DNA of 64,000 nucleotides from an uncultured Porphyromonadaceae bacterium (GCA_947573485.1 CANPGB010000006.1:50585-114584), one strand, 5' to 3'. Shown: positions 5,046 to 51,548, numbered from the stretch's first letter. The notes: generated by a model from the letters alone, not told the origin. Program-made: numbers and translations.

Positions 5046-5192
5046 AAAAATAAACAGTAAAGCGTGAATAGAAAGTATGAGAGGCGTGCGGCATTGCAGC
5101 ACAGCTAATAATGTAACACCCGGAGGAGCGCTTGGTTCAGCGGCAACGGTTAATAGCGGCTGCAAAAATTTCGTGTTTAGCCAAAAAATTGC

Positions 5193-5200
5193 TAAATTTG
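5193..5200 (+). promoter_or_regulatory. -7 promoter box (TAAATTTG) for parC
   Basis: TAnnTTTG, 27 nt upstream of the ATG at 5227. Confidence 0.55.
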
Positions 5201-5226
5201 TAGCATCAAGCCTTAAACAGCCAAAG

Positions 5227-21916: not shown

Positions 21917-23389
21917 TCAGATGCTGTCTTCCTTAATAATAAGGAGGGCATCGCCGGGGTGAAGTCGGCTCGAACCGTTGGGCACCATGTACTTGCCGTT
22001 GCGGCGTATCATAATCACCAGAGAGCCGGCGGGGAGGTGGAGGTCGCGCAGGCGGTCGCAATTGTGCAGGTGTGCTTCTGTGAGGGTCTTGATGTTAAGT
22101 GAGGTAGGCAACTCGTCGGCGAGCTCTACTCCGAAGTCGTCGCTCTCATCTTCTTTGTCGGTCAAATGAAGCATGCGGGCAAAGGGTATTACGGTTGTGC
22201 CCTGGAGCAAGAGTGAGAGCAGGGTTACAAAAAATACTATATTGAAAATCTGCGACGCGCCCTCGATATGAGCCACCACAGGGTAGGTGGCGAAAATAAT
22301 GGGAACAGCTCCGCGCAGGCCTACCCACGAAACGAAGAGACGCGAACGCATGCTTATCTTGCGGAACGGCAGAAGCGAGAGGAACACACTCAAGGGGCGA
22401 CCGAAAAGGATCATGAACGCGCCAATGAGAAGCGACACGGGTGCCACCGTAAGCATGTCGGAGGGGTTGACAAGAAGGCCAAGCATGAGAAAGACAACAA
22501 TCTGCGCCAACCACGTGAGCCCGTCGACAAATTTTATTATACCGCGGCGGCTCGGGACACTTGAGTTTCCGAGCATGATGCCAAGAAGATAGACCGCGAG
22601 ATAACCGTTGCCGCCGAGGTCGGTTGCCGCCGCAAAGGTAAAGAACACAGAGCCGAGCACCAGTATGGCGAGCATGGAGGTGGCCTGCGAGGGGTCTTCG
22701 CTCTTGCCTCCCCCGAGACGCAGGTACATGCCCAGAAGCCATTGCGTTATCTTTCCCATTACAAATCCGGCGGCGATGCCTATGCCGAATTGCGCGATGA
22801 GCGCGGTGCAGAGGCTCCAGCCCGAAAACTCGCCCGCGCCGACAATGCTCTCTATCAGGATTATGGTGAGCATATAGGCCATAGGGTCGTTGGAGCCGCT
22901 CTCGAGCTCGAGCATGGGCCTCAGATTATTCTTCAAGCCCACTTTCTGACTGCCGAGAATACCGAAAACCGAGGCTGAATCGGTCGACGACATCGTTGCG
23001 GCAAGCAGTAGTGAGGGCAGGAAAGCAAAGTGGATGTTGGTCCAGCTCATGCCCGAAAGCCACCATATAAAAAGACCTGTAAGCAGCGCTGTGATAAGGA
23101 CACCCGCGGTGGAGAGAATCACGCCGGGGAGAATAACAGGTTTAATTGCGGATATTTTAGTGGAGACACCGCCCGAGAAGAGGATGATACACAGCGCTAT
23201 CATGCCTATGAACTGTGCCACGGCCATGTCGCCGAACTGTATGCCGAGGCCGTCGGAGCCGAAGCCCATGCCTACAAGGAGGAAAATAAGGAGCAGGGGC
23301 AAGCCGGTGCGGTAACCCGATTTGCCAAAGAGCACACCGGCGATGAGCAGAAGCGAGCCAATGAGCAGAATATTTTCTGAACTAATCAT
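21917..23389 (-). CDS. potassium/proton antiporter (CPA1 family) with C-terminal TrkA_C domain
   Basis: About 12 TM helices with ESGSNDP (Na_H exchanger signature) and a C-terminal RCK_C-like region ...LRDLHLPAGSLVIMIRRNGKYMVPNGSSRLHPGDALLII. Confidence 0.85.
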   Translation of the reverse strand: MISSENILLIGSLLLIAGVLFGKSGYRTGLPLLLIFLLVGMGFGSDGLGIQFGDMAVAQFIGMIALCIILFSGGVSTKISAIKPVILPGVILSTAGVLITALLTGLFIWWLSGMSWTNIHFAFLPSLLLAATMSSTDSASVFGILGSQKVGLKNNLRPMLELESGSNDPMAYMLTIILIESIVGAGEFSGWSLCTALIAQFGIGIAAGFVMGKITQWLLGMYLRLGGGKSEDPSQATSMLAILVLGSVFFTFAAATDLGGNGYLAVYLLGIMLGNSSVPSRRGIIKFVDGLTWLAQIVVFLMLGLLVNPSDMLTVAPVSLLIGAFMILFGRPLSVFLSLLPFRKISMRSRLFVSWVGLRGAVPIIFATYPVVAHIEGASQIFNIVFFVTLLSLLLQGTTVIPFARMLHLTDKEDESDDFGVELADELPTSLNIKTLTEAHLHNCDRLRDLHLPAGSLVIMIRRNGKYMVPNGSSRLHPGDALLIIKEDSI

Positions 23390-27909: not shown

Positions 27910-27922
27910 AGGGTGTGAAAAG

Positions 27923-27951
27923 CCGGGACACAATGATTTTTTGTGTCCCGG
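27923..27951 (-). terminator. terminator-like hairpin between malQ and tamB
   Basis: 11-bp perfect stem CCGGGACACAA / TTGTGTCCCGG with a 7-nt loop, followed on the minus strand by CTTTTC. Lies 21 nt after the malQ stop and 14 nt before the tamB ATG. Confidence 0.5.
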
Positions 27952-27971: not shown

Positions 27972-30647
27972 TTATCGTCCGGAGTGTTTGATTTTGTCAC
28001 GCAGGTAACCGTTGTATTCTGTCTGTGCAATAAGGTCTTCTACAGTGAGGTGCATGCGGTATCGCCAGTAGTGACGCGGATTCGCAGGCACGTTTATCTG
28101 CTCTTCCTGGGGTTTCTCGCGGCGTATTGAGCCGTCGATAGAGAGCCAGTCCTGAAGCGGCAGTATGCAGAGCATGGAGGGCGACTGCAGATGCAGGTCA
28201 ACAATCTTGTCGCACACCCAGGGCTCGGCATAGTAGGGAGCTGCGCCGCCTTCGTGGAGTACCTCGTTGTAGTACTGCTGGGTCTTGGCGCGGTCTTCTT
28301 CCCACCACTGGCGTATGCCGCCCATGTCGTGGGTCGAGGTGGTGCATACCGAGAAGTAAGGATAAGTCCAGGTATTGCCGAAAGCCGACGAGGGGTCTTT
28401 GGGCATGCGCTGGATTTCGAGCGACAGAATCTCGAGCTGCTGCATTACCGCGGGAACGCAGGCGGGAATCATGCCGAGGTCCTCGGCGCACACGAGCATG
28501 TCGGTGGAGTCGATGAGCGGGGGCAGCTTCCACATTGCCTTGCCATACCAGAAGTCGTTGTGGCGGTGATAGAAGAAATCGTTGTAGAGGCGGTTGAAGC
28601 ACCAGCGCTCGTAGTCGTTGAGCGAGCGGTAGATGTAGGTGTATTGCGCCGATATGCGGGGGTGATATTTGCCTTTCTCAATGGGGTCTTCAATGAAGAG
28701 CACCTCATCGACAAGCCCGAGCAGACCCTCGCAGATGCGGGTGTTCTTCTCGTTTTTGGGCTGCTTGGCAAAGTAGTCGGCAATCTTGCGCTGGGTGTTG
28801 AACTCGGGTTTGAGAGCGTGGCGTCCGCCGCCGAGGTCGTCCATATAAACACGCAGGGTCTCGGCAGTATAGGGGCCGAAGAAATCTTCCACGAAGTAGT
28901 CCATTATGTATGGGCGGGTGTGAAGATCGGTGTTTATCCAGAAGTCGTAGTTGTAGCGAAGTTCCTCAACAGAGTAAGGCAGGGCGGGATTGAAGTATCC
29001 GAGCAAACCGTGTACGGCGTCCATAGGTATCTGCCATATGCGGAAGAAACCGAGCACGTGGTCGATACGGTATGCGTCGAAGTATTCGGCCATTTTGCGG
29101 AAGCGGGCTTTCCACCACGCAAAACCGTCGCGGTTCATCTCTTCCCAGTTATAGGTGGGGAATCCCCAGTTCTGACCGAGAACCGAGAAGTCGTCCGGCG
29201 GCGCTCCGGCCTGGCAATCCATGTTGAAGAGGCGGGGATCCTGCCATGCGTCGGCGCTGGTGCGCGAGATGCCGATAGGAATATCACCCTTGAGAGCTAT
29301 GCCCTTGGAGTTGGCATACTCGTGCACATGACGCATCTGCTTGTCGAGGTTGAACTGCAGGTAGCACACGAAGTCAATCTCCGAAGGATTCTCTGCCACA
29401 ACTTTTTCGAGCACGGCCGGCGAGTATGCGGCATATTCGCCCCACTTGGTGAAGTCGGGGGTGTTGAAGCGGTCGCGCAGCACGCAGAAGGCGGCATAGG
29501 GGCGGAGCCAATAGCCGTTGCGCTTCACAAAGTCTTTGTATGCGGCGCTTTTGAGGGTCTTGGCACCTTCCTGGGCGAAAATTTCGCGGAGATATGCTAT
29601 CTTGGTGTCGTTGGCACGCTCATAGTCAATCTCGGCAAGAGCGTTGAGCTCAGCGGCGATAGCCTCGTAGTGCTTGCGGCGGGTGGCATCTTTGAGTTTG
29701 CCGAGCTCCTGCACGCGAAGGAACATGGGGTGCAGCGCGAAAGTTGAGTTGGCGTTGTAAGGATACGAGTCGGTCCACGTGTGGGTCATGGTCGTATCAT
29801 TGATAGGGAGGAGCTGGAGAAAAGTCTGACCGGTTGCTGCTGCCCAATCAATCATGGGGATGAGGTCGTAGAAATCGCCCACACCCATATCCTGAGTGGT
29901 GCGGAGCGAGAACACGGGGATTGCCGTACCGGCACCGCGCCAAGGAGTGAGAGTGTTTATAAAGCGCATACCGGCAAGAACGGTAGCTTCTTCATGACGG
30001 GGTTTGATGCCGATGCGACGGTTGTCGCCCCCTTCCCAGGCAACGAGGTTGCCCGTATGTGCGTCAATTATGAGGAATTTATATTGAGTGTCGGAGTCAA
30101 GACCCTGCGAGGGAACGTTTACTTTCCAGACGGGGAACTCGGCGTCGCTCATACGCATGGCTTTCGAGGGCTCCCAGTTGCCGAGGGCCTCGCCTTCGCC
30201 TGCTACAGCAAGCACACGACCGGGACCCACCATAGGCGCGGCGATACAGAGGGTGGTGAAGCCGTCGAGAGGAGTGACTTCTTTGGCAGGCTCGGGGTGG
30301 CGGCAGATACAGCCGGTGAAAGCCGACGAATAGAAAGGCTTGTCGAGAGGCTGATCTTGCCAACGGTCGAAGATACGGCACGACTCCACGCCCTTGGTGG
30401 CACGGAAAGTATTGCCGTTGCCCCATTCTTCTTTAACAGAGCCGTCGTCGTTGCGGACAATATATCGGTAATCAAAGGCTTCGGCAGAGTCGGGAATTTC
30501 GACTGTTACCGACCATTTGTCGACGCCGTCGAGCGTCATTCTGAGGGCTTTGGCATAGTCGCCACCCCCGAGGGCGGCAATATTGCCGGTGACAAAAACC
30601 GATTCGCCCCAGTTGGTTCGGTAGTCGATGTTGAACGTAAGCTTCAT
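27972..30647 (-). CDS. malQ: 4-alpha-glucanotransferase (GH77) with N-terminal CBM20 starch-binding modules
   Basis: CBM20-like N-terminus (FNIDYRTNWGESVFVTGN...WSVTVEIP...YRYIV). GH77 core motifs DSYPYNANSTFALHP, DIPIGIS, YRIDHVLGF and GMIPACV. 891 aa. Confidence 0.9.
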   Translation of the reverse strand: MKLTFNIDYRTNWGESVFVTGNIAALGGGDYAKALRMTLDGVDKWSVTVEIPDSAEAFDYRYIVRNDDGSVKEEWGNGNTFRATKGVESCRIFDRWQDQPLDKPFYSSAFTGCICRHPEPAKEVTPLDGFTTLCIAAPMVGPGRVLAVAGEGEALGNWEPSKAMRMSDAEFPVWKVNVPSQGLDSDTQYKFLIIDAHTGNLVAWEGGDNRRIGIKPRHEEATVLAGMRFINTLTPWRGAGTAIPVFSLRTTQDMGVGDFYDLIPMIDWAAATGQTFLQLLPINDTTMTHTWTDSYPYNANSTFALHPMFLRVQELGKLKDATRRKHYEAIAAELNALAEIDYERANDTKIAYLREIFAQEGAKTLKSAAYKDFVKRNGYWLRPYAAFCVLRDRFNTPDFTKWGEYAAYSPAVLEKVVAENPSEIDFVCYLQFNLDKQMRHVHEYANSKGIALKGDIPIGISRTSADAWQDPRLFNMDCQAGAPPDDFSVLGQNWGFPTYNWEEMNRDGFAWWKARFRKMAEYFDAYRIDHVLGFFRIWQIPMDAVHGLLGYFNPALPYSVEELRYNYDFWINTDLHTRPYIMDYFVEDFFGPYTAETLRVYMDDLGGGRHALKPEFNTQRKIADYFAKQPKNEKNTRICEGLLGLVDEVLFIEDPIEKGKYHPRISAQYTYIYRSLNDYERWCFNRLYNDFFYHRHNDFWYGKAMWKLPPLIDSTDMLVCAEDLGMIPACVPAVMQQLEILSLEIQRMPKDPSSAFGNTWTYPYFSVCTTSTHDMGGIRQWWEEDRAKTQQYYNEVLHEGGAAPYYAEPWVCDKIVDLHLQSPSMLCILPLQDWLSIDGSIRREKPQEEQINVPANPRHYWRYRMHLTVEDLIAQTEYNGYLRDKIKHSGR

Positions 30648-38118: not shown

Positions 38119-40125
38119 TCATCCGCCAATCATTTTGAGGAACTCGTCCTCTCCGATGACAGGCACGCCGAGTTTCTCGGCTTTCTCAAGCTTGGCCGGG
38201 CCCATGTTCTCGCCTGCGAGAACAAAGTCGGTCTTCTTGGAAATCGACCCGGAGTTCTTGCCTCCGTGCCGCTCTATGAGCTGTTTATACTCGTCGCGAC
38301 TGTGGTGCGTGAACACACCGCTGATTACTATCGTCTTCCCGGCGAGAGAGTCGGAGAGAGGCTCGGCGTCCTCAGCTTCTTCAACTGCCATTTTCACACC
38401 GGCAGTGCGAAGTCGCTCAACCATGGCTCGGTTCTCGGGGTCAGCGAAGAAAGCCACGGTTGTGGCGGCGATGCGCGGCCCGACATCCTCGACAGCCTCC
38501 AGCTCGGGTGCTGTCATAGCCATGAGTCGGTCGATATCCTTTGCGGCACGTGCAATCTTGCGCGCTGTTGTCTCGCCTACATAAGGTATCGAGAGGGCGA
38601 ATACCACGCGCTCGAAAGGCACCTCGCGGCTGGCGGCGATACCGTCGATGACCCTTGCCGCGCTCTTGGCGGCGAAGCCTTCGATAGTCATGAGGTCGGC
38701 GGCGGTGAGGCTGTAGAGGTCGGCCACATTGCGCACGAGGCCGTTGGCGAAGAGTGCGGCTGCCGTTTCCTCGCCTATACCGTCGATATTCATCATCTTG
38801 CGCCCTACGAAATGCTCGACGCGCCCTACAATCTGCGGCACACAGCCCTCTTTATTGGGGCATACCCACGCAGCTTCGCCTTCAACGCGCACGAGAGGGG
38901 TTCCGCAGGCCGGGCAGTGGGTTACAAACTCCACAGGTCGTGCACCGGCCGGGCGGTCGGGGAGCTCCACACCTGTAATCTTGGGTATAATCTCGCCGCC
39001 TTTTTCAACGTAGAGCATATCGCCCTCGTGGATGTCGAGGGCTTTCATTATATCTGCGTTATGCAGCGAGGCACGTTTGACTATCGTGCCCGAGAGCAAC
39101 ACAGGCTCGAGGTTGGCAACAGGTGTGATGATACCCATGCGGCCGACGTCGAACGACACGAAGCGCAAGCGTGTGGCAGCTCTCTCGGCGGCAAATTTAT
39201 ATGCCACGGCCCAACGGGGCGATTTGGCGGTAAGACCGAGATTGCGCTGCTGCAGTAGGGAATTAACCTTGAATACAAGGCCGTCGGTAGCGACAGGCAG
39301 TTCGCGGCGGGCGGTATCCCAATGGTTTATAAAGCGGTCGACCTCCTCGATACTGTGCAGCAGCGTCATGGCATCGCTTACCTTGAAGCCCCATGAACGA
39401 GCCGCCAGCATATTATCGTAATGATTGTCGTAGGGGAGATTTTCGCCGAGGAGGTAGTATAGATATGCGTCGAGACCGCGACGGGCAACCTCGGCGGAGT
39501 TCTGCATCTTGAGCGTGCCGGCGGCAGCGTTGCGCGGGTTGGCGAAAAGAGGTTCTCCGGCAGCCTCGCGCTCGGCGTTGAGGCGGTCGAAAGCGGCGCG
39601 TGGCAGCACTATCTCGCCACGTATTTCAAAGAAATCGGGCCAACCGCTGCCCTGGAGTTGCAGAGGTATGCTGCGTATGGTGCGCACGTTATCTGTTACG
39701 ATGTCGCCACGCTCACCGTCGCCTCGGGTGACGGCACGCACCAGCTTACCGTGCTCGTAGATGAGCGATATGCCGGTACCGTCGAATTTCAATTCGCCCA
39801 CAAACACCGCTTTCTGCCCCGAAAGACCTTGGTCGACACGTCTTGCCCACGCATCAACATCCTCAATGGAATAGGTATTGGCCAACGAGAGCATGGGGTA
39901 GATATGTTTCACCTGCTCAAAGCCCTGCGTGAGGTCGGAGCCTACGCGACGTGTGGGCGAATTGGGGTCGGCGAGCTCGGGGTGTTCTTTTTCGAGAGCT
40001 TCAAGTTCTTTGAGCATCATGTCGAAGTCGCGGTCCGAAATTTCGGGCGCGTTCAGCACATAATAATTATGATTGTGGCGGTGCAGCTCGCTCCGCAGTT
40101 CTTCTATTCTTTCCTTGTAGTCCAT
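38119..40125 (-). CDS. ligA: NAD-dependent DNA ligase
   Basis: Adenylation motif KFDG ([11 protein letters not shown]), zinc finger CPACGTPL...CPN, HhH and C-terminal BRCT ([10 protein letters not shown]). Start set at [11 protein letters not shown] (40125). Confidence 0.9.
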
Positions 40126-40706
40126 TACAAACCTTTCACTTTGCCGGGATTCTTTGCTATATAATCTTTCCATGACGACGCGCCCTTGGCCACTACCGGC
40201 CTCGACGACTCATAGAAGTGGCACAGCGCCGCCGCCAATGCATCGGTGGCATCGAGCTTGGGCAGGAGGCTCTCGGCGGGAATATCGAGTATGCGTCTCA
40301 ACATCTCGCATACCTGCTCTTTCGAGGCCGCTCCCGTGCCTGTTATCGCCATTTTTATCTTTCGGGGCTCATACTCCGTTATAGGCACCTGGCGCGAGAG
40401 TGCAGCTGCCATGGCCACACCCTGGGCGCGCCCGAGCTTGAGCATCGACTGAACGTTCTTGCCGAAGAACGGCGCCTCGATAGCCATTTCGTCGGGGCAA
40501 TATTGCTCCACGAGCATGCTCACCCGCTCATAGATGCGCCCGAGCCTCATGTAATGGTCACCGATTTTGGTAAGTTCTATGAGTCCCATGGCTATCATGG
40601 CAGGTTTCTTGCCATAGATGCCGAGGATGCCATAGCCCATGATGTTTGTGCCAGGGTCTATACCTATTATAATACGGTCGGCCTTCTTGACTTTTTCTTC
40701 AATCAT
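40125..40706 (-). CDS. ruvC: crossover junction endodeoxyribonuclease
   Basis: [21 protein letters not shown], ...[10 protein letters not shown]...[12 protein letters not shown]. 193 aa. Stop overlaps the ligA ATG by 1 nt. Confidence 0.9.
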
Positions 40707-41035
40707 CTCGAGGGGTCGTGAACGATGTCGAGCACCGATTCAAACAATGCGATTTTATTACCAAGGAGAGCGCCCGCCTCATTGTAGAGCCGGGGCAGGA
40801 TATCCGAGGTAAAACTGTCGAGGAGTTCCTGCGACGAAGCCCTCATCTGCAGGGCGAAGGTGCGCGTGGGCTCGCCGCTCAGCGCGTTGGTGTCGGCGGC
40901 GCCGCGAACCTCGGTGAGCAGGGGCGCACGCATACCGGCCTCGATAGCCGCGGGTATATAGCGGTCGCATATAAAGTTCATGAACGTCTCTGCGGCAGAG
41001 GCGTCGATGCAGTATGTGGTGTTGAAGAGTATCAT
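40703..41035 (-). CDS. DUF4286-like small protein
   Basis: 110 aa starting [34 protein letters not shown], the family pattern as I recall it. Only the last 110 codons of the 208-aa track ORF are used. ATGA overlaps at both ends. Confidence 0.6.
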
Positions 41036-41790
41036 TTCGCAGTCTTTTGTCTCTTTCTCCAACGCCTTGCAAAAGATATATGTTTGAAGAGGGTGGGGAA
41101 GAAACCGTAATAATATGACATTATTCTGAAACGCTCGAAAAGCGAAGCGCGGTGGTTGGCTGTGGTCACACCTTCGTTGAGGTAGTCGATGAGCACCGTG
41201 TCGGTGAGGCCGACGTTCTTGCGCGAATGTTGCAGGCAACGTATGCACCACTCGTAGTCGGCAGAGAAACGGTAGCGTAAATTGTAGAAGCCTGTGATTT
41301 TGCGGAGTGCAACAAAAGCCTGGTGGCACACCACCATACCGTCGGCGAAGTCGGCTAACTTCAGTCCCTCGGGGGCAGTGAGGTGACGCGGACCGAGGCG
41401 GCGGCCGCTGTCGTCAACGATGTCGGTCTGACCGTAGACAATCCCGGGCGTATTTTCGCGCTCAATGGCCTCGGCTATGCGGGCGAGGGTATCGGCGCTG
41501 TGGAACTTATCGCCTGCATTTAGAAAGATAAGGTAGCGCCCTGTGGCCATGCTGATGCCCTTGTTCATGGCATCGTAAATACCTTTGTCGCGCTCTGAGC
41601 GCACGCTCCGCTTTGCCGACGGGTGTGCGTCGAGGAGCTTGGGAGTGTCATCGGAAGAGGCGCCGTCGATTATGAGATGCTCGTAATCGGTGAAGGTCTG
41701 ACTGTCGACACTCGCCAGGGTGCGCCCGAGGGTAGCCTCGGCATTGTAGCACACGGTTATTATAGAGAAAAGCGGCTCTTTATCAGGCAT
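41032..41790 (-). CDS. family 2 glycosyltransferase
   Basis: FSIITVCYNAEATLGRTLASVDSQTFTDYEHLIIDGASSDDT and FLNAGD (DxD-like). 252 aa. Confidence 0.8.
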   Translation of the reverse strand: MPDKEPLFSIITVCYNAEATLGRTLASVDSQTFTDYEHLIIDGASSDDTPKLLDAHPSAKRSVRSERDKGIYDAMNKGISMATGRYLIFLNAGDKFHSADTLARIAEAIERENTPGIVYGQTDIVDDSGRRLGPRHLTAPEGLKLADFADGMVVCHQAFVALRKITGFYNLRYRFSADYEWCIRCLQHSRKNVGLTDTVLIDYLNEGVTTANHRASLFERFRIMSYYYGFFPTLFKHISFARRWRKRQKTAK

Positions 41791-44700
41791 TGTGGCAATC
41801 GTTCACGAGGTTGGCAATCTTGGCAGGCATCGAAGCTGCATCTTCTTTCACACGGAGGGTGGCACCGAAGCGCTTTGAGGGCAGCTTGTCGGCCAGGCAG
41901 TCGGCAAAGCGGTCGAGCACTTCGCTGTCGGCAATCTCGAAGCCTACGGTGTGGTGTATGGGAGCCTCGTGCAGACGCTTGGGCTCACTTTGCAAGTGTG
42001 CGGCCTCTATGGCTGCAATCTTGTTGGCACGCTTCCAGAGAGTGCCGCCGCTGTCGGCGCCTATGCATACCAGGCCGTCGTCCTTGCGGGCTATAGAGGC
42101 AAACATGAGCTTATACTTGGTGTTGTATTCGAGAGCGATGTTGTCGCCCTTGGCATAAATCTCGTTCAGAGGCACACGCATAGCCCTTTCGTTATCGTAG
42201 GCAAGCACAAGCCAGCCATCGTTAAGGTCGTGCGGAATCACCAGGGCCAGACGGCAGTCGCCTTCGCCGGGTTCATTGTAGAGGTCAACCGTTGAAAACA
42301 CGAGTTTATCCTCGCCCATGAAGTAGAGGTAGCCATAGGGGTCGGCAAACCCAGTCTCATAGCTGTGGCATACATTGGGGCGCCACTGTGAGGTGGCAAT
42401 TATGTCGGCCTCGGGTTCTGCCTCCTGATGTTCTGGTTTCTCGGGCTCGGCAACTGCAGGAGTGCTCGCAGGTTGAGGCTCGCGGACATCTTCAAGCGCC
42501 ATATCGTCGGCCTCACGGGTCTGGGCGGCTATGGCCAGAAGGTGAGTGCGCTCGGCTTTCAGCTCTTGGCGCTCGCGCACAAAGTCGTCGACAGCCTGCC
42601 CGTGGTACTCGCGTGTCGACTGCCCGCTCTGGCGCACAAAAAGGCGACCTTCGATGAATACCGGGTCAAGCGATTCATCTACATTTATGAGCACAACACC
42701 CTTTTCGGCCTCATCGTCAACCGAAACTGCAATCTTGCGGCCCACACTCGCACCGAAAGTCTCGTTGATGAGATTCTCGAGGAATACGCAAAGGTTGTCG
42801 AGGTTGCGTATGCGGAAGGTGTAACGCCCGGCCATGGCAGGCTTGCGTTCGAAGTAGCGGAAATCGTCGCGCATGCCCACCTCGTAGCCGTCGTTGTTGA
42901 CGCCGAGATAGAGGCGGCCGCCTCCTGCATTGAGCAGACCTGCTATGCGGCTGAGGATATGGAACTGCTGTGCCTCGGGATCCTCGCGCATTTCCTCGCC
43001 CGGAGCCGTGGCGGGGTACACGATAGAGGTCTTGAACTCGAGGTATTTCGATTCTGAGCCGTAGTATTTGCCACGGCGTGTCTCGTTGTTCACGTTGAGC
43101 TTGTGCATTATCTGCTGCTTGATTTCGTTGGTGAAATCGGCAGCGTCGCTGTCGGTGTTGTGGAGCATGTTGTAGCTCAGCACGAGGCGGGCTATGCTGC
43201 CTTCAAGCTCGTTTGCGGGCTCGTTGACAGTGCGGTAGAGTTCGGGGATGCGGTCGGGACGGTCGAGCCACGACACCATTTCGAGCCTATGGTATATGAG
43301 CCGCAGCAGGGGGTCGGCGAGTGCCTCGCTCTGCAGAGCCTCGAGTTTCTCCGGGTCGATGCGTGAGTTGGTGGCGTAGTACTGGTGCAACGAGAGCAGC
43401 GATGCGTGCGTGCCGAGAGTGCCTGCGAGCTGTTCGTCGCCGAGAACACGGGCAAGAATACGGGCGAAACGCAGATAGTCGTAAGCCTTGATGAGGTCGG
43501 TCTCGGCAATGGCCTTGAAGCGGATAATATCGATTATCTCGCGGACATCGCCCGGGGTGAGAATTTCGTCGATGTCACGCATAAGCTCCTCTTCCTGAAT
43601 CAGGCGTGTATCGGTAGCCTCCGACGAGCCTTCTCCTATAGCACGCATGAGGGTTGTGAAAGCCTCGCCTTTGTCGAAGCGGTCGGCAGGGTCAGTGGAG
43701 ACGGCGGTGGCATAGGCCCTTATCTGACCCTGCTTGCCCGTCTGCTCAAGGCGGTATGTTACGATGTCGCCTACTTTGAGGTCGGCGCCCACCTCTTCGT
43801 CACGGATAATGAAGAGTCCTATGCCGTTGCGGCCAATGGCGCTGTAGTCACGTTCGTTGACGCCTGCAATAATGGCAGTGTAGGTATCCCCGAAGTTGAA
43901 GCTGTCGGCGATATACTCATCTACGCGGTTGCGCAGAGAGAATATATAGGAGCCGTCGGCGCGGATGTCAAGAACCGTGGCAAGGAATCCGAGCTGGGTG
44001 CCGTCGGAGTTGAGGTAGGCCCGGTCGGAGGGCTGTTTGAGGTTGTAACCTACAATCTGGTCGCGCTTGAGGATACCCGTCCCGGTCTCGAACTCAACAT
44101 CTTCAATATGGCAGATGAACGTGGGATTGTTACCGAAGAAATCGTCGACACTGTCGATAACGATATACACCTCATCGCCTTTTTCGGGGCGACGTATAGG
44201 CTGAGGTGTTTCAGAGACTGCCGCCTGTGCCGCGGGCTTGGCGGCCTCGAAAAGATTCTCTTCAATATCGTGCCACCACTGGCTGTGGTCGGAGAGCTTG
44301 CGCAGACGCGGGCCTGAGAGTCCTCTCACACCGTTTATCATAATCTGCGGGGAGAGCCATGGCATGAGCCCTTCAGGCACAACACGTTCGGTTACATCGC
44401 GCTTGCGGGTGTTTGTCAGACGTATGCCTTCGGCCGACACCGTTATATCCACATCGTTATTGGTGTAGCGGTGGCTCGATTTGAGCTTTGTCATATAGTC
44501 GCCCGCAGGCAGCACAGTAGCCTGGGTCATCATCATCATAGGCTCGCGCAGCTGGGCGTAACTGAGTTTCGAGCTTACGTCGGCCCCGAGCAATGCAAGG
44601 AATGATTTTGCCAGCAGAGCCTCAGTGTTGAGGGGGCGAAGAATTGATATATACTTATAGAACAGCGACTCTGTCTGGTGGCGGTCTCCGTTGTCAACAC

Positions 44701-45904
44701 CGTTGTTTTCGGCAAGGAGCAACTGCAGGGCTATGGCCGTAATGATAGCCTCAAGGCGCGATTTCTGCTCACGGCTCTCGGCCAGAGGCAGGGCATCAAT
44801 CTCGCGCCGGGCTTGACTCACGTAAATCTGGAACTGCTCAACGAAAGCGCTGCGGAAAGGCTCGCGTTTCCAGTTCTCAAGGTCACGCCCGAAGATACTC
44901 TCGAAGATGCGGTTGAGGTAGTTGCCCACTTTGTCGGGGTAGAGGCGGAAGATAATCATCAGCACGGCAAATTGCTCGGCGGGATGATAGAGGTAGCCCG
45001 ACTTCTGCAGTTTGTCGAGAAGGCTCTCCACGAAAGCATCCTGGCGGCTGTCGGATATCAGTTTGAGTGTCTGCAGATAAGGTTCGAGACTCTCCACCAT
45101 GGCCGTGAGTTGCTGGCGCAGGGCACGGCGGTGCTCGGCAGGCACGGCGTTGAGGAAGCCTGAGCCTTCGAGGAGGTAGAGCAGGGCGTCGCCGAAGGTT
45201 ACGATGAGGCTGCGCAACGCACGGCGCCTGCGGGTGTTGCGGGTACGCCCGAACCACTCGGGGAGGTTGCGCATCACCTCGCGGTGCAGGGTCATAATCC
45301 ACAGCGGACTCTTCATGCGCAGCTCGGTGCGCACCGCTTCCATTTCGCTCCAGCCGGTTAGCATACGTCTAACAAAAGCGCGTATCGCCCCCGGGGCTGA
45401 AATAGCCTCAAGGATGAAAGCAGGCTCATAAAACGGAATCTTGGCGCCTTCGTCGACGCGCGCCAACTGAAAGAAGCGCGGTGTCATGCGCGTGAATTTA
45501 CAGCGGATAATCTGACCTTTGGAGAGAAGCCCTTCGGGCTCGTTGAGACGGAAAAAAATGCCGTTGCCGTCGCGTACCATAAACGGGTCTTCGGCCGGTT
45601 TGGCAGGAACGCTCACCACCTCACATTCAAAGGTGTCTCCCCGCTCGAAAACTTTGGAATAAAGCTCGCTCACATATGGCGCTATCATATGGGTGAGCAC
45701 CGGCATCCCGTATTCATCAATACTTTTGACGCGACACAGCAGTTCGGCAGGCGCTATATAATTATCCCTTTTCTGAAAAGGAAGTTTGGGCAGCTCTACA
45801 AAACTCTTGCCCTCATCGGTATCAATCTCAAGTTTGAAACAATCGTCGGTCGCCGCTCCCGGCAGAACGGGAAACAGATAACTCTCGTCAATGATGTACT
45901 CCAT
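41783..45904 (-). CDS. 1373-aa multidomain protein with central AlbA_2/Schlafen-like nucleic-acid-binding domain and OB/S1-like modules
   Basis: The segment GSESKYLEFKTSIVYP...ILSRIAGLLNAGGGRLYLGVNNDGYEVG matches the AlbA_2 (divergent AAA_4) signature. No Walker A (GxxxxGK[ST]) anywhere. Repeated GD-x-[VFY] beta modules are present. Stop overlaps the GT2 start by 8 nt. Confidence 0.7.
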   Translation of the reverse strand: MEYIIDESYLFPVLPGAATDDCFKLEIDTDEGKSFVELPKLPFQKRDNYIAPAELLCRVKSIDEYGMPVLTHMIAPYVSELYSKVFERGDTFECEVVSVPAKPAEDPFMVRDGNGIFFRLNEPEGLLSKGQIIRCKFTRMTPRFFQLARVDEGAKIPFYEPAFILEAISAPGAIRAFVRRMLTGWSEMEAVRTELRMKSPLWIMTLHREVMRNLPEWFGRTRNTRRRRALRSLIVTFGDALLYLLEGSGFLNAVPAEHRRALRQQLTAMVESLEPYLQTLKLISDSRQDAFVESLLDKLQKSGYLYHPAEQFAVLMIIFRLYPDKVGNYLNRIFESIFGRDLENWKREPFRSAFVEQFQIYVSQARREIDALPLAESREQKSRLEAIITAIALQLLLAENNGVDNGDRHQTESLFYKYISILRPLNTEALLAKSFLALLGADVSSKLSYAQLREPMMMMTQATVLPAGDYMTKLKSSHRYTNNDVDITVSAEGIRLTNTRKRDVTERVVPEGLMPWLSPQIMINGVRGLSGPRLRKLSDHSQWWHDIEENLFEAAKPAAQAAVSETPQPIRRPEKGDEVYIVIDSVDDFFGNNPTFICHIEDVEFETGTGILKRDQIVGYNLKQPSDRAYLNSDGTQLGFLATVLDIRADGSYIFSLRNRVDEYIADSFNFGDTYTAIIAGVNERDYSAIGRNGIGLFIIRDEEVGADLKVGDIVTYRLEQTGKQGQIRAYATAVSTDPADRFDKGEAFTTLMRAIGEGSSEATDTRLIQEEELMRDIDEILTPGDVREIIDIIRFKAIAETDLIKAYDYLRFARILARVLGDEQLAGTLGTHASLLSLHQYYATNSRIDPEKLEALQSEALADPLLRLIYHRLEMVSWLDRPDRIPELYRTVNEPANELEGSIARLVLSYNMLHNTDSDAADFTNEIKQQIMHKLNVNNETRRGKYYGSESKYLEFKTSIVYPATAPGEEMREDPEAQQFHILSRIAGLLNAGGGRLYLGVNNDGYEVGMRDDFRYFERKPAMAGRYTFRIRNLDNLCVFLENLINETFGASVGRKIAVSVDDEAEKGVVLINVDESLDPVFIEGRLFVRQSGQSTREYHGQAVDDFVRERQELKAERTHLLAIAAQTREADDMALEDVREPQPASTPAVAEPEKPEHQEAEPEADIIATSQWRPNVCHSYETGFADPYGYLYFMGEDKLVFSTVDLYNEPGEGDCRLALVIPHDLNDGWLVLAYDNERAMRVPLNEIYAKGDNIALEYNTKYKLMFASIARKDDGLVCIGADSGGTLWKRANKIAAIEAAHLQSEPKRLHEAPIHHTVGFEIADSEVLDRFADCLADKLPSKRFGATLRVKEDAASMPAKIANLVNDCHNA

Positions 45905-45930
45905 AAATAATTAGTTGAAGTTCGACATAA

Positions 45931-45960
45931 GCCGGCACGACAAAAGTGGCGCATGCCGGC
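45931..45960 (-). other. hairpin in the 5' leader of the 1373-aa gene
   Basis: 7-bp stem GCCGGCA / TGCCGGC. Located between the -7 box (45972-45979) and the ATG at 45904. No T-run follows on the minus strand. Confidence 0.35.
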
Positions 45961-45971
45961 GAAAACATGCA

Positions 45972-45979
45972 CAAATATA
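45972..45979 (-). promoter_or_regulatory. -7 promoter box (TATATTTG on minus strand) for the 1373-aa gene operon
   Basis: Plus-strand CAAATATA, 68 nt upstream of the ATG at 45904 and 30 nt downstream of the feoB stop. Confidence 0.5.
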
Positions 45980-46008
45980 CACTTTTATTATCAAACATGC
46001 AACTTCTC

Positions 46009-48555
46009 TCAGCAGAGCAAGGCAATGCGGTAAACCGCAAAGGCTGCCAGCCAGGCCACAATAGTATTGTAAACCACGCTGAAGGCAGCATAGTGCCACG
46101 AGTGTGTCTCACGCGCGATAGCCGTGATAGTGGCCAGGCAGGGGCAGTAGAGCAGGACGAACACCAGGAAGCTCAGAGCTACCGCGGGAGTGAAATCGGG
46201 GCGCCCGGTGGCGGGGTCGGCAGCAGATATTCTTTCGCCGAGACGCTCGTCGGTGGTGGCCTCATCGTCGGTGTAGAGTACGCCGAGAGTCGATACAACA
46301 ATCTCTTTGGCAGGCACGCCTGCGAGAGCTGCCACCGATGCGCGCCACTCGAAGCCGAGAGGCTTGAGCAGAGGGTTGATAGCCTTGCCCATCATCTCGA
46401 GGTAGGAATCATGCTCGGGGTCGATTACCGATGTGTCGGTAATGTGCGAGTCAGCACCCTTGGCATCATGATTGGGGAAATAGTTGAGAGCCCATACCAC
46501 AATGCTGGCAAAGAGTATTATACCGCCCATTTTCTTCAGATACTCGCGCCCTTTGGCCCAGGTGTGGCGCACCGATGCCTTGAGGGTGGGGAGGCGGTAA
46601 GGCGGAAGTTCCATAACGAACGGAGTCTCGTCTTTATGGAAAAAGAAGCGGCGCAGCAGGCGCGCTGTAATCACGGCTATCAGTATGCCTCCGAAGTACA
46701 TGCAGGCGAGAACGAGTCCGGCGTGGGCGGCGAAGAAGGTACCGATAAGCAGCACGAAAACCGGCAGGCGTGCCGAGCACGACATGAAGGGGTTGATTAG
46801 TATGGTGATTATGCGGCTCGAACGGCTCTCGATGGCACGCGATGCAATAATGGCAGGCACGTTGCAGCCGAAGCCCATGACGAGAGGGATAAACGACTTG
46901 CCGTGAAGCCCTATGCGGTGCATTACCTTATCCATAATGAAGGCGGCGCGTGCCATATAACCCGAGTCCTCCATAAAAGATATACAGAAGTATAATATGA
47001 GGATGTTGGGCAGGAAAACTATGACACCTCCCACACCTCCTATTATGCCGTCGGTCACGAGGTCTTTGAGCGGTCCGTCGGGCATGAGTTCGTTGCAGGT
47101 GTCGCTAAGCCAGCTCACGCCGTTCTCTATCCACTCCATAGGATACTGGCCGACAACGAAAGTCGCCCAGAAAATAAAGAACATTATAACAAAGAAAATC
47201 GGGAAGCCGAGGAGCTTGTTCGTGGCGAGCGAATCAAGCACGCGTGTGGTGCGTCGCTCCTGCTTTTTACCTACGGTGAGGGTTTCGGCAAGTGCGCCGG
47301 CCACGAAACCGTATTTATGCGCGGCAACTATCGACGAAATCTCTTCGTTGCGCATGCCTTCGATGCGTCCGCGCAGCGTGTCGCGCAGAATTATGACTTC
47401 GCTGCCGGGGGTGCGGGGCACATGGCTGCGCCACGTTTCATGTTCGGGGGCTGCTGTCGGAGTCTCACAGCAGCTCTTGTGCAGAAAGTGCCGGCTGAAG
47501 AAATTGCGGCGCCGCTTAGGGCGCGCAGGCTTGGCTTCGCGGGCAGGGTTCTCGATGTTGCCTTGCTCTTCGCTGGCAGGCACCTCGTCTTCCATTTCAT
47601 GGTCGCCCTCAAGGAGTTTGATTGCCATATATCGGGGCGAGAAATGCTTGCTGGTGGCCGGACTGGCCTTGAGTTTATCAACTATCTGGCGCACAGCCTC
47701 CTCGATGTCGGCACCGAGGTTCACGTGTATGTGGCGCACAACATCGTCGTGCCCCTCATATACCGAAATCACCGTGTCGAAGAGGTCGTTGATACCCTCG
47801 CCGGTCTTGGAGACTACAGGTACCATAGGCACGCCAATCATTTTGCCGAGAGTGTCGTAGTCGAGCACATCGCCCTTGGCACGCAGTTCGTCGTACATGT
47901 TCAGGGCTATGACCATGCTTGTGTCCATGTCGATGAGCTCGGTGGTTAGATAGAGGTTGCGCTGCAGGTTCGACGAATCGACCACATTGATAATGACATC
48001 GGGGGTGTGCTCCCGCAGATACTGCCTTACGTAGAGCTCTTCGGGCGAGTAGCAGGTGAGCGAATACGTGCCAGGCAGGTCGACAATATTGAAGCGGTAG
48101 CCTTTGTACCGGAAATAACCGTCTTTGGCATCGACAGTCACGCCCGAATAATTGCCGACGTGCTCGCGCGCTCCCGAAGCGATATTGAAGAGCGACGTCT
48201 TGCCGCAGTTGGGGTTGCCAATGAGAGCTATGTTGATAGTATGTCGTTCGTGGTTGAAACGGCGGCGCTCCTCAGTGTTCTCAGGCAGGGAGGCTTCCGA
48301 TGCATGGGCTACCTCCGGAATAGATGCGGGGTCTACCTCAATGACCTCGATAAGCGACGCTTCTGACGCGCGTAGCGACACCTCATAACCTAATACGGAA
48401 TATTTTATAGGGTCGCGCAAAGGAGCATGGAGCACGACAGTAACGGTGTGCCCTTTGACAAAACCCATTTCAAGTAGACGCTTGCGGAATGCGCCGTGGC
48501 CATGTACCTTGACAACAATGCCCGACTGGCCTGTGTGAAGCTCCGATAGTTTCAT
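46009..48555 (-). CDS. feoB: ferrous iron transporter, FeoA-FeoB fusion
   Basis: N-terminal FeoA SH3-like domain (LSELHTGQSGIVVKVHG...GFVKGHTVTV), G domain (GNPNCGKTSLFN, DLPGTYS, NMYD) and a polytopic gate domain. Fusion is typical of Bacteroidales. Start set at MKLSEL (48555). Confidence 0.9.
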   Translation of the reverse strand: MKLSELHTGQSGIVVKVHGHGAFRKRLLEMGFVKGHTVTVVLHAPLRDPIKYSVLGYEVSLRASEASLIEVIEVDPASIPEVAHASEASLPENTEERRRFNHERHTINIALIGNPNCGKTSLFNIASGAREHVGNYSGVTVDAKDGYFRYKGYRFNIVDLPGTYSLTCYSPEELYVRQYLREHTPDVIINVVDSSNLQRNLYLTTELIDMDTSMVIALNMYDELRAKGDVLDYDTLGKMIGVPMVPVVSKTGEGINDLFDTVISVYEGHDDVVRHIHVNLGADIEEAVRQIVDKLKASPATSKHFSPRYMAIKLLEGDHEMEDEVPASEEQGNIENPAREAKPARPKRRRNFFSRHFLHKSCCETPTAAPEHETWRSHVPRTPGSEVIILRDTLRGRIEGMRNEEISSIVAAHKYGFVAGALAETLTVGKKQERRTTRVLDSLATNKLLGFPIFFVIMFFIFWATFVVGQYPMEWIENGVSWLSDTCNELMPDGPLKDLVTDGIIGGVGGVIVFLPNILILYFCISFMEDSGYMARAAFIMDKVMHRIGLHGKSFIPLVMGFGCNVPAIIASRAIESRSSRIITILINPFMSCSARLPVFVLLIGTFFAAHAGLVLACMYFGGILIAVITARLLRRFFFHKDETPFVMELPPYRLPTLKASVRHTWAKGREYLKKMGGIILFASIVVWALNYFPNHDAKGADSHITDTSVIDPEHDSYLEMMGKAINPLLKPLGFEWRASVAALAGVPAKEIVVSTLGVLYTDDEATTDERLGERISAADPATGRPDFTPAVALSFLVFVLLYCPCLATITAIARETHSWHYAAFSVVYNTIVAWLAAFAVYRIALLC

Positions 48556-48857: not shown

Positions 48858-49946
48858 TTATTCGTAGGTTGTGCTTACATCGACATAAGTGTCAACGGTA
48901 GGATTACCGAACTCGATGGCTCCCATTTCCTCGTTGGAGTTGATAACGAGGTTATACACATAGTGGTAGCCGGGATGCCACTCCGAGAACGAACTTGTTG
49001 AGAGCGGGAATTTGAGAAGACCGTCGCCGAAGGTACTGCCTTCAACGATATTCTCAGCGGGAGTATTGGCGTTAGGCCACAGCTTGTCGCCGGTCTTGGC
49101 ATCGTACACCGAGCACATCACGGTGATATACATATCGTTGCCACTGCCGTTGCTGCGGTATGTGAGCTGCTGGGGCAGTGTATATTTGGCTCCGCCAAGG
49201 CCGAGACCAGTAGAGCCCATATCGGTGGCTGTGGTAGTCAGGGTTATAAGGTCGTTGGCATCCTGCGACATGTGGTAGATATATGGCACGGGGGTATTTT
49301 GGTCGGTCCAGGTACCTATATTGCTTGCAGTTGGGCTGCCGGAAGTCGATTCGGTGGGGAAGTGGAAGTTGCCTTTGGTCATGATATTGGCCATTGCCAC
49401 GTTCGATACCTTCACCTGGAGGTCGGCGTTTGAAGAGCTCATCTTGATAGTCACCTTTGAGAGTGCGTGTCTGAAATTGAACACAACCTGGGCGTTGGCC
49501 ATGCCGGTGTTGCCACGGAGGTCGGGGCTCACGGCATAGATTATATCTTCTGTGCCGGGATATGCGTCATAGGCCACCGGCTGCAGAGGGGTAGCCGTTC
49601 CGAGCCATTTGGACGGAGCGAAAGCGTAGAAGTCCACAGCCTGGCTTGCAGGCCAGTATTTCACAGGCGAGTACGTCCATGTGTTTGTGCCGGTCTTGGT
49701 AACCTCCACATTATCCATGAAGAGGACAGGGGCTTCGTCGGTGCCGGTGTAGGCGTACACGTTGAAGGAGCGCAGAGTGTTGGTTGTTATATCGCCTGCA
49801 CGTGAGTACTCGGTGTTGGCGGCAAAGCGTATGGTGTTGTCGTCGATAGTCGAGCCCGGGGTATCTTCTTCGGTATCGGTACATGAGAAGAGCGGAAGAC
49901 CGCCAAGGGTGGCGACCGCAATTGCGAGTAATTGGATTTTGCTCAT
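48858..49946 (-). CDS. fimbrillin family lipoprotein (Mfa/FimA-like stalk subunit)
   Basis: Lipobox LPLFSC, then ...IRFAANTEYSRAGDITTNTLRSFNVYAYTG..., typical of Bacteroidales type V pilins. Third gene after DUF3575 and DUF5119. Confidence 0.7.
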   Translation of the reverse strand: MSKIQLLAIAVATLGGLPLFSCTDTEEDTPGSTIDDNTIRFAANTEYSRAGDITTNTLRSFNVYAYTGTDEAPVLFMDNVEVTKTGTNTWTYSPVKYWPASQAVDFYAFAPSKWLGTATPLQPVAYDAYPGTEDIIYAVSPDLRGNTGMANAQVVFNFRHALSKVTIKMSSSNADLQVKVSNVAMANIMTKGNFHFPTESTSGSPTASNIGTWTDQNTPVPYIYHMSQDANDLITLTTTATDMGSTGLGLGGAKYTLPQQLTYRSNGSGNDMYITVMCSVYDAKTGDKLWPNANTPAENIVEGSTFGDGLLKFPLSTSSFSEWHPGYHYVYNLVINSNEEMGAIEFGNPTVDTYVDVSTTYE

Positions 49947-49965
49947 TGTCTATACTTGTTTTTGA

Positions 49966-50904
49966 TTAAAAATTAATATTCTCATCATAGTTGATCTCTA
50001 TCACCTGCCAGCCGTCGACATCCACATTTATGCCGACATCTTCGTCGGAAGGAGGCACCGTCCCTGAGGGTATCGAGAGGCTGTCAATATAAATTGTAAC
50101 GTTGTGGCTATAGCGAGAGTTTATCACCTGGCCGGTGACATCGAAAGTTTTGGAAAAACGTTCGCCGTCGGAGCGCGTGACAATCAGCGCAAGCTCAAAA
50201 TCGGGCTCCGAAGTGGACCCAAGTCCCGATGTGGTGCCTCTGAGACCGCCTTGGCCGGTAAGGGAGAGCGATGTCTGTGTGGCACACATATCAGCGCCGG
50301 CCTTGCAATCTCCGAGATACAGTTCCGAAGCCATGCCCGACAGACGGGCCGTGGCCGACCGCATCCGCTCCAGGCCGTCAACCCGCCCCACAATTATATT
50401 ATATATTGTAGCGGCGCTGTCGGGATAGCAGCGCACCAGCTCGTAGGGGCACTCTTTAATTGTGCCGTCGGGCTGCCGGTAACGCACTCCGCAGAGCGTC
50501 TGTTCAATTTCTCCAACCACAGCGCGGTACAACATCCCTGTGGGGAATACCGTCGAACCATTGGATTTAGGTTGCGCCGCGAGTGTGGCAAAAGCATCCT
50601 GTCCGCTGTACACAGTGCCCGGCAAATCGTTGTTTACCGACACCAGGGCATAGCGGCCGAGCGGCAGCTCCACCTCTCCGCCCTCAGCTCCTGCAATATC
50701 GTAGCGCCATACCTTGCCACCGCTCTGGAGAGGGTAGAAGTACAGAGTCATGCCGGCAGGAGAGGCTTGCGGCGCCTTATCCCAAATAAAAGTAACGGTG
50801 AGAGGGTAGGGCTCGGTGCCGGGGCACATGATATCCTTGTGTGTGCACGAGAGCATGCACACCATTAGAATCAGCACTGCAATGTATGCCCACAGAGACC
50901 TCAT
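49966..50904 (-). CDS. DUF5119-like fimbrial accessory lipoprotein
   Basis: Start set at MRSLWAYIAVLILMVCMLSC (lipobox). This position and size match the second gene of Mfa-like loci. ATGA overlap with the upstream gene. Confidence 0.55.
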   Translation of the reverse strand: MRSLWAYIAVLILMVCMLSCTHKDIMCPGTEPYPLTVTFIWDKAPQASPAGMTLYFYPLQSGGKVWRYDIAGAEGGEVELPLGRYALVSVNNDLPGTVYSGQDAFATLAAQPKSNGSTVFPTGMLYRAVVGEIEQTLCGVRYRQPDGTIKECPYELVRCYPDSAATIYNIIVGRVDGLERMRSATARLSGMASELYLGDCKAGADMCATQTSLSLTGQGGLRGTTSGLGSTSEPDFELALIVTRSDGERFSKTFDVTGQVINSRYSHNVTIYIDSLSIPSGTVPPSDEDVGINVDVDGWQVIEINYDENINF

Positions 50905-51548
50905 AATGTGCGCAGGGGACTGTTGTGCCGCCCCGAGCCCGGGAACCACACGAGTGAAACTTCTATAGCGGTAGGACCAACGTACCGGTGTGCCACACGA
51001 CCGGTGCAGACATAGGTGCCGCATTGCGGTTCATACTCCACCATTTTGCCTGCGACATAGCCGAGCCTCAACCCGAAGTCGAGATTGAGACGCTCGTTCA
51101 GAGGGAGTGAATAACCATAGGCTATACCAAGCCCGTAGACAGGCTTTACCGATTGCCACCCCTTGCCACCAAGCTCAAAATCAAAAGAATGGACTGAAAA
51201 ATAAACGCCTGCATGATGCCCTGCCATGGCGCGCAGGCCGTGTTTGTTCCCGAACCACCAACGCAACTCGCCGGAGCCACCGTATATGCGCCAGAAGCGG
51301 TTGCGGCTGCTCTTGCTCCACCAGGCCCATAACCCCTGCCCGACAACCGAGAAACGCTGGCCAATGCCAAGTTCGAGGCCAAGGTCGGGCGTAAGAGCCG
51401 CATCATGCAGAAGATTCGTGCGTACGGCAAGCACCGGACGGCAGTCATCACAACTCTCGCACTCCTGCCCGTTAGCGGCAAGGGCGCAAAACAAAAGTAG
51501 TGCTACCGCTGCAATGTGTATTAGTGATGAATATGCCGATTTAATCAT
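50901..51548 (-). CDS. DUF3575-like outer-membrane beta-barrel protein (first gene of type V pilus locus)
   Basis: Signal peptide, then ...LAVRTNLLHDAALTPDLGLELGIG... and a Gly/Tyr-rich strand pattern characteristic of DUF3575. Confidence 0.65.
   Translation of the reverse strand: MIKSAYSSLIHIAAVALLLFCALAANGQECESCDDCRPVLAVRTNLLHDAALTPDLGLELGIGQRFSVVGQGLWAWWSKSSRNRFWRIYGGSGELRWWFGNKHGLRAMAGHHAGVYFSVHSFDFELGGKGWQSVKPVYGLGIAYGYSLPLNERLNLDFGLRLGYVAGKMVEYEPQCGTYVCTGRVAHRYVGPTAIEVSLVWFPGSGRHNSPLRTL

Follow-up and report, generated by a model that had tools for sequence, protein, structure and literature searches.

The Schlafen nucleases are among the known systems closest to the protein considered here. 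In SLFN11, residues E209, E214 and K216 are required in Schlafen RNA cleavage; this triad is kept in SLFN11-14 and absent in the inactive SLFN5 and mouse SLFN2 (PMC9482658). The catalytic pocket of the prokaryotic Schlafen CbCash is an E17-D22-K24 triad with Mg2+ (PMC13462974). In prokaryotes, the only role connected with Schlafen domains so far is anti-phage immunity, the proteins being CRISPR-associated (Cash), fused to Argonaute, or linked to restriction-modification or BREX systems. A Schlafen-type domain of the AlbA_2 family has now been identified in the product of a 1373-codon open reading frame (ORF) at 41783-45904, on the minus strand of a 64,000-nucleotide stretch of DNA from an uncultured Porphyromonadaceae bacterium (GCA_947573485.1 CANPGB010000006.1:50585-114584), referred to below as the window. 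Our preferred reading, to which we give a probability of roughly 0.45 from the sequence and the predicted structure, is that the protein would be an ATP-independent, S1-domain-guided endonuclease of the Schlafen type, most likely acting on structured RNA (tRNA or rRNA).

The AlbA_2 domain and its E/E/K signature

The AlbA_2/Schlafen-like core that an initial annotation, made without database searches, had proposed for this protein was recovered by Pfam, by a profile search of the PDB and by fold search. Pfam PF04326 matches amino acids (aa) 951-1096 (E 4.6e-4) with 21.1 bits, under the 25.3-bit cut-off; in most of the homologues it lies above that cut-off. A profile of the family run against the PDB matched SLFN5 (1.9e-4) and SLFN11 (4.9e-4), and SLFN12 as well. 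Structures were modelled with AlphaFold2 (AF2) from 46-sequence alignments as aa 1-760 (predicted local distance difference test, pLDDT, 87.3) and aa 741-1373 (pLDDT 86.0). With the C-terminal half, Foldseek found the AlbA_2 protein 3lmm (1.2e-4) and the N-domains of SLFN13, SLFN12, SLFN11 and SLFN5 (5e-3 to 2e-2); the pLDDT is mostly 85-95 over aa 960-1100 and lower at the edge where the triad lies (block means 64-80, aa 941-960).

E951, E956 and K958 are invariant in the family alignments, and their equivalence to the Schlafen triad rests on motif spacing and on positions 1-8 of the Pfam profile. By a strict pattern, E/E/K was found in 290 of the 304 family proteins of at least 1000 aa; among 13 pattern misses, nine visibly keep [ED]-x4-E-F-K and differ only in flanking residues, and a GGxL motif was not found in the remaining four. 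AlbA_2 is also the most conserved domain of the protein: its mean identity to the query is 65%, and the remaining folded domains reach 45-53% and the linker 12%. The initial annotation had made of this protein a non-enzymatic scaffold. Since the triad that is essential in Schlafens is intact here, is invariant in the family and lies in the best-conserved domain, that view goes against the evidence, and "non-enzymatic" is unsupported, the weakest part of the earlier inference.

The same annotation had scanned for GxxxxGK[ST] and found none, and there is indeed none, even with a relaxed Walker A pattern. No ATPase domain was matched in Pfam or NCBIfam, no ATPase fold is among the Foldseek matches, and the fold search of a predicted structure that had been suggested as a check returned AlbA_2 and OB/S1-like (oligonucleotide/oligosaccharide-binding) folds, with no cryptic ATPase. 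All the named members of the family are called "ATP-binding protein" (MCI5783145.1, MCF0189916.1, MDO4715404.1, MBQ2322366.1 and the Muribaculaceae entries). With no Walker A motif, and with no P-loop or ATPase domain in any member examined, this public name has no support in the sequence; the family is mislabelled and its annotation misleading. The name would be accounted for by an older label of PF04326, that of a divergent AAA domain.

Domain organization, family and gene

In the AF2 models, the predicted order along the polypeptide is two S1-like barrels and helical domain A, two more S1-like barrels and helical domain B, then AlbA_2, a long helix, an acidic linker and a partial beta-pinwheel (Table 1). 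Beta modules opening with GD-x-hydrophobic had been read from the sequence; the models do contain four five-stranded barrels, but the third supposed opening (KVGDIV...) turned out to be strands 4-5 of barrel 4, which itself opens with NFGDTYTAIIAGV (aa 670-682). The barrels have the S1 topology, and bS1 domains are their top Foldseek matches, with template modelling scores on the target (TMt) of 0.47-0.55. Searched against the PDB, the N-terminal half matched bS1 first (9gut_B, 2.6e-6; the D3-D4 pair of 7a05, 2.6e-5, TMt 0.47), with exosome S1 subunits, IF1/eIF1A, HIN200 and Teb1 lower down, while the top three matches in BFVD are phage-encoded S1 proteins (2.6e-6), aligned over 317-336 columns that span both barrel pairs. 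By hhalign the first and second pairs are collinear (probability 89%, 81 columns) and helical domains A and B show no relationship; only the barrel pairs look duplicated. Helical domain A has many invariant residues (SGYLYHP, FRSAFVEQF) and gave no significant match by fold or sequence search. PDB sequence searches with the single sequence or a full-length profile gave nothing significant, matches to V-ATPase subunit F and YBL028C (both E > 0.1) being judged chance.

On the preferred reading of an S1-guided nuclease, the four barrels would capture single-stranded or structured RNA, like the S1 domains of bS1, RNase E, PNPase and Rrp5, and the two helical domains would scaffold or gate the enzyme. 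AlbA_2 would then cleave the bound RNA, with a divalent metal held by E951 and E956 and with K958 also needed. Two copies may associate, perhaps via the helix at aa 1103-1138, to give the substrate channel on which Schlafen nucleases depend. The protein would probably have a chromosomal role in housekeeping or under stress (turnover of RNA or control of translation) and would not be a mobile defence module.

The helical region, the acidic Pro/Glu linker and the beta-rich C-terminus of the initial annotation are all seen in the models. For the C-terminal domain, Foldseek gave 1zi0 (1.3e-4) and also 1wp5, 1suu and 3l6v (to 1.5e-3), at probability 1.0; TM(target) for these pinwheel matches is just 0.33-0.42 over ~160 columns, or about three blades, the likeness being one of fold. 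No Pfam or PDB sequence match was found for the domain, a profile search of the PDB included, nor were PF03989 repeats. Against the C-terminus of the window's own ParC, hhalign gave a probability of 3%; this and the lack of a PDB profile match rule out a recent origin of the domain from the resident topoisomerase. It is acidic (net charge -9, pI 5.2), as it is across the 46 homologues, with no basic DNA-wrapping rim found. The resident GyrA/ParC-type subunit (954 aa, window 5077-7941, plus strand) has a strong DNA_topoisoIV core (aa 114-532) and, in its ~400-aa C-terminus, no Pfam gyrase C-terminal repeats at E <= 1e-5, which suggests a divergent C-terminal domain.

The protein had been called an orphan; this is refuted by full-length relatives that number in the hundreds. 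A word-indexed protein search gave 103 homologue clusters, nearly all full-length, at 32-71% identity; a scan of species-representative genomes (one genome per GTDB species) gave at least 342 encoding stretches; and an exhaustive HMMER search with an AlbA_2-free profile (aa 1-945) gave 388 representative proteins, 243 of them at E <= 1e-30. The family's hosts are Muribaculaceae, other Bacteroidales and Marinilabiliaceae. Few clusters are named, those from Muribaculaceae as "ATP-binding protein [Muribaculaceae bacterium]"; the named members beyond that family are proteins from metagenome-assembled genomes of "Bacteroidales bacterium" and "Marinilabiliaceae bacterium". The best 80 of the at least 342 stretches are apparently Muribaculaceae, including Duncaniella and Sangeribacter, with full-length identity down to 26%; many of their records are labelled merely Bacteroidales, Porphyromonadaceae or "uncultured Bacteroides sp.".

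Three length classes are seen, of ~1340-1416 aa, of ~1215-1250 aa with a shortened N-terminus, and of ~1073-1130 aa, ending directly after AlbA_2. In eight of the eight architectural variants tested, PF04326 was found straight after the N-terminal region, at 37-56 bits; the N-terminal ~930 aa and AlbA_2 thus form an obligate unit, always together, to which the C-terminal domain is optionally added in particular lineages. There is no curated family model for the whole protein in Pfam or NCBIfam, and literature searches did not find the family and its architecture described; the domain types are known, and the family and architecture are undescribed in the searchable literature. JGI/IMG gives the name "ribonuclease R" to two fragments (P0305, P0306) that cluster with a 1074-aa member; at 36-43 aa their length does not allow evaluation, and the label may be chance.

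As had been noted, the ORF is single and uninterrupted, from ATG to TGA; the strand, on which the initial annotation was silent, is added here, and the peptides quoted in that annotation are all located in the translation (Table 1). Eight independent contigs, from several samples, encode an identical 1373-aa protein, and the gene has a GC content of 56.4% vs 54.6% for the window, with no compositional anomaly; the ORF is therefore neither misassembled nor foreign DNA. The full-length homologues likewise rule out a fused ORF, and GC content and synteny rule out horizontal transfer or an island origin. The gene does have a putative -7 box of its own, TATATTTG, inside the 104-nt intergenic spacer between feoAB and the ORF. 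TAnnTTTG occurs 32 times in the window against 22 expected, so that the motif by itself is not significant and position alone argues for TATATTTG. The hairpin that follows (dG -17.3 kcal/mol, z-score only -1.7, no T-run after it) could be a structure of the 5'-untranslated region or a feoB terminator; an Rfam scan of 41000-46600, hairpin included, gave no match.

Table 1. Features of the 1373-codon gene, its product and its neighbours. Positions are those of the window unless stated otherwise.
Feature	Residues (aa)	Position	Strand	Remarks
First tandem OB/S1-like pair	1-152	45449-45904	-	Five-stranded barrels 8-72 and 92-149, joined by helix 74-88; AF2 pLDDT ~90
Helical domain A	160-475	44480-45427	-	Family-specific, all-helical, ~13 helices; AF2, alignments
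Small three-stranded beta meander (478-522) and helix 537-552	476-556	44237-44479	-	AF2; disordered stretch 555-567 next
Second tandem OB/S1-like pair	572-742	43679-44191	-	Five-stranded barrels 578-656 and 674-735; acidic, pI 4.4
Helical domain B	745-940	43085-43672	-	Family-specific, all-helical; motifs AYDYL, HQYYATN
AlbA_2/Schlafen-type nuclease-fold domain	945-1102	42599-43072	-	Pfam, PDB profile, Foldseek, conservation
E-x4-E-x-K signature	E951-S-K-Y-L-E956-F-K958	43031-43054	-	Metal-binding/catalytic motif of nuclease-proficient Schlafens
One long helix after AlbA_2	1103-1138	42491-42598	-	AF2; possible dimerisation element
Acidic Pro/Glu linker, disordered	1139-1166	42407-42490	-	pLDDT < 50; 12% identity; net charge -6
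Beta-rich C-terminal domain with helices	1167-1373	41786-42406	-	pLDDT > 90; acidic; ~3 GyrA/ParC pinwheel-like blades
Quoted peptide RGDTFECEVVSV	88-99			
Quoted peptide KGDEVYIVIDSV	575-586			
Quoted peptide KVGDIVTYRLEQTGKQGQIRAYA	710-732			
Quoted peptide GSESKYLEFKTSIVYP	949-964			
Quoted peptide ILSRIAG...GYEVG	983-1010			
Quoted peptide EPQPASTPAVAEPEKPEHQEAEPE	1142-1165			
-7 box TATATTTG		45972-45979	-	Perfect TAnnTTTG (Bacteroidetes -7 consensus), 67 nt upstream of ATG
Hairpin GCCGGCA...TGCCGGC		45931-45960	-	GC-rich, 9-bp stem; between -7 box and start codon
8-nt overlap ATGCCTGA		41783-41790	-	Stop codon of the gene overlaps start codon of downstream GT2 gene
GT2		41032-41790	-	
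DUF4286		~40703-41035	-	110 aa as called elsewhere
ruvC		40125-40706	-	
ligA		38119-40173	-	Apparent 49-nt overlap with ruvC; true start probably later
uvrA paralogues in L067		4620-7535 and 12371-15169		Positions in locus L067

Gene neighbourhood and rival readings

In the window the gene lies in a tightly packed co-directional run on the minus strand that comprises feoAB, the gene itself, GT2, DUF4286, ruvC, ligA, a class I aminoacyl-tRNA synthetase and rpoN, in keeping with the housekeeping setting that had been remarked on. Overlaps of 4-8 nt chain it to GT2, DUF4286 and ruvC (window 40125-41790), which suggests translational coupling of functionally unrelated genes. This four-gene order, in places extended by ligA and with start and stop codons overlapping, is kept in ~58 of the 80 Muribaculaceae loci, with identity of the protein down to ~30%. 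In a GT2-anchored sample the gene was upstream of GT2 in seven of the ~12 loci that have GT2 then ruvC; the linkage is therefore frequent, not obligatory. Two uvrA paralogues (43-58% mutual identity) flank it in L067-L073 and L080, co-directionally in the L067 clade; in L001, L019 and L022 a divergent uvrA lies upstream, and a single inversion could turn one arrangement into the other.

Beyond Muribaculaceae, the gene has different neighbours in each context, mostly housekeeping genes, and no repair gene is adjacent. They include DUF4301 with an RlmL-like methyltransferase, a metallo-beta-lactamase-fold protein (Lactamase_B) with ArgRS and AspRS, a cytidine/dCMP-type deaminase-domain protein, glycosyltransferases, and peptidase M48 with PPDK. 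Proximity to DNA-repair genes is a hint restricted by lineage and does not characterise the family. No partner gene conserved family-wide was found in the contexts compared; the neighbours are housekeeping genes, not defence islands, in seven different contexts, and PADLOC gave 0 matches for the protein and two distant relatives.

Some further features of these loci may be recorded. In one clade (L028, 11989-14469) the homologue's stop codon and a TPP-enzyme (MenD-like) gene share an 8-nt overlap, equal in length to that in the window although the downstream gene is another; an Abi_2 gene comes next. In the window, upstream of feoAB, DUF3575, DUF5119 and Mfa-like fimbrillin genes form a cluster of the minor fimbriae type (48858-51548, minus strand), and a 1515-aa TamB/DUF748 protein (23386-27933, minus strand) adjoins a GH77 4-alpha-glucanotransferase with CBM20 (27972-30647).

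Several observations weigh against an S1-guided RNA endonuclease. In ten barrel segments from five family members, Pfam found no S1 family match at E <= 10, with a single 13.7-bit S1_RRP5 trace, and it is for this reason that the barrels are termed S1-like and not S1 members; their likeness to S1 is confined to the fold, and single-stranded DNA (ssDNA), double-stranded DNA (HIN200 and Teb1 being among the lower matches) or proteins are bound by OB folds too. E-x4-E-F-K is also the general Pfam AlbA_2 signature, many bacterial AlbA_2 proteins are annotated as regulators, and retention of a motif is no proof of catalysis. The whole protein has a pI of 5.1 and a net charge of -50, with consistent acidity across the 46 homologues in barrels 3-4, in helical domain B and in the C-terminal domain; bS1 is acidic too. 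The protein diverges at about twice the rate of its neighbours (34-38% identity where RuvC has 74-80%), a pattern also seen in immune proteins. The C-terminal domain resembles a DNA-wrapping domain in its fold, and within Muribaculaceae the gene recurrently adjoins the DNA-repair genes ruvC, ligA and the two uvrA paralogues.

These last two points would suit a DNA-metabolism factor whose ligands are ssDNA or branched DNA, found at repair intermediates or, as for SLFN11, at stalled forks, with OB barrels that bind ssDNA, a pinwheel that bends DNA, and an AlbA_2 domain that binds or nicks DNA alongside RuvC, LigA and UvrA. The conserved block with ruvC, the uvrA genes flanking or divergent upstream, the match to GyrA/ParC pinwheels and the HIN200 and Teb1 OB pairs among the weaker fold matches are all consistent with such a factor, and SLFN11 does bind ssDNA (PMC13462974). 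We nevertheless think it unlikely. No repair gene adjoins it outside Muribaculaceae, and the uvrA adjacency is explicable by one ancestral arrangement and one inversion. The pinwheel-like domain is acidic, without sequence similarity to gyrase C-terminal domains or the window's ParC, and missing from the ~1080-aa relatives; the best fold matches of the barrels are RNA-binding S1 domains. Improbable, too, is a chromosomally fixed single-protein anti-phage (abortive-infection) system in which the helical and barrel domains would sense a phage protein or nucleic acid and free the Schlafen nuclease to cut host tRNA (compare Cash, the Schlafen-Ig fusion and SAMD9-like proteins). No PADLOC model matches, the protein is without an NTPase (nucleoside triphosphatase), cyclic-nucleotide sensor or partner gene, its neighbours are housekeeping and its GC content native, and the locus is kept in relatives from 70% to ~30% identity, which argues for long vertical inheritance. 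To be set against these are the rapid evolution of the protein, with the effector domain most conserved and the putative sensor parts diverging faster, its absence upstream of GT2 in ~5 of the ~12 otherwise syntenic loci of the GT2-anchored sample, the Abi_2 gene nearby in L028 and an RloB with AAA_21 nearby in L089. Moreover, every prokaryotic Schlafen-domain protein characterised by experiment up to now is a defence effector that cuts tRNA (PMC13462974).

The initial annotation's own proposal was that of a non-catalytic nucleic-acid-binding scaffold or chaperone, with AlbA_2 merely binding. The multi-S1 layout does resemble that of bS1 and Rrp5, both of them binding proteins with no enzymatic role, and nucleolytic activity is absent from several mammalian Schlafens and from many AlbA_2 proteins (PMC13462974, PMC9482658). 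The non-nucleolytic Schlafens are, however, exactly those missing one of E/E/K (PMC9482658), and the present family keeps E, E and K over its whole known range; a mere scaffold seems to us distinctly unlikely.

Muribaculaceae are among the dominant bacteria in the mouse gut and are common in the human gut, and their RNA metabolism is almost unstudied. A conserved 1300-aa protein in which an intact triad goes with four S1-type barrels, and which has neither an NTPase nor a defence context, would carry the Schlafen nuclease family over into a probable non-immune role; at minimum it would be a new regulatory architecture. More doubtful is the bolder proposal that gut Bacteroidia would have here the first "domesticated" Schlafen of prokaryotes, an ATP-independent RNase passed on vertically, whose four S1-like barrels select tRNA or rRNA for housekeeping or stress-induced cleavage. 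On that proposal the protein would be a previously unrecognised major ribonuclease or RNA-binding hub of its phylum, which, to our knowledge, has neither Hfq nor ProQ.

Comparison with known systems

With the GyrA/ParC pinwheel (PF03989), the C-terminal domain shares ~155-160 aligned columns and a recurring blade-like motif, L(V/I)LxY..ER..(K/R)VPL.EI. It differs in having about three blades, in being acidic and not basic, in lacking sequence similarity and a topoisomerase core, and in being optional. DIP2311 (PDB 3lmm), which we take to consist of AlbA_2, HATPase_c_4 and a winged helix-turn-helix (the "ATP-binding protein / transcriptional regulator" class), is the structure that the AlbA_2 domain matches best (E 1.2e-4) and has the database name "ATP-binding protein" in common with the family. 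Only ~158 columns, the AlbA_2 part, can be aligned, and in place of the ATPase-like and winged-helix parts the present protein has S1-like and helical modules.

SAMD9/SAMD9L, presumably built of an AlbA_2 effector, NTPase, TPR and OB, are likewise large single polypeptides in which helical repeats and OB folds accompany a nuclease-type domain of the AlbA_2 kind; the present protein has no SAM, SIR2 or STAND NTPase and another domain order, and homology is evident in AlbA_2 only. The tandem five-stranded S1-type barrels, and the logic of S1 arrays combined with helical repeats, are those of bS1 and eukaryotic Rrp5, though here the barrels match no S1 sequence profile, form two separated pairs and are fused to a nuclease-type domain.

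From the Schlafen nucleases themselves (the SLFN11/12/13/14 N-domains and CbCash) the protein is set apart by its single AlbA_2 near the C-terminus, after a ~930-aa family-specific region, and by having no helicase/ATPase, Csx15, NACHT, Ig or Argonaute partner domain; its context is housekeeping, not a defence island, and R25 of CbCash is T/S in its family. What it shares with them is the AlbA_2 fold, the N-terminal E-x4-[E/D]-x-K triad and a GGxLxxGV strand that, in the PDB-profile search, aligns with SLFN5, SLFN11 and SLFN12.

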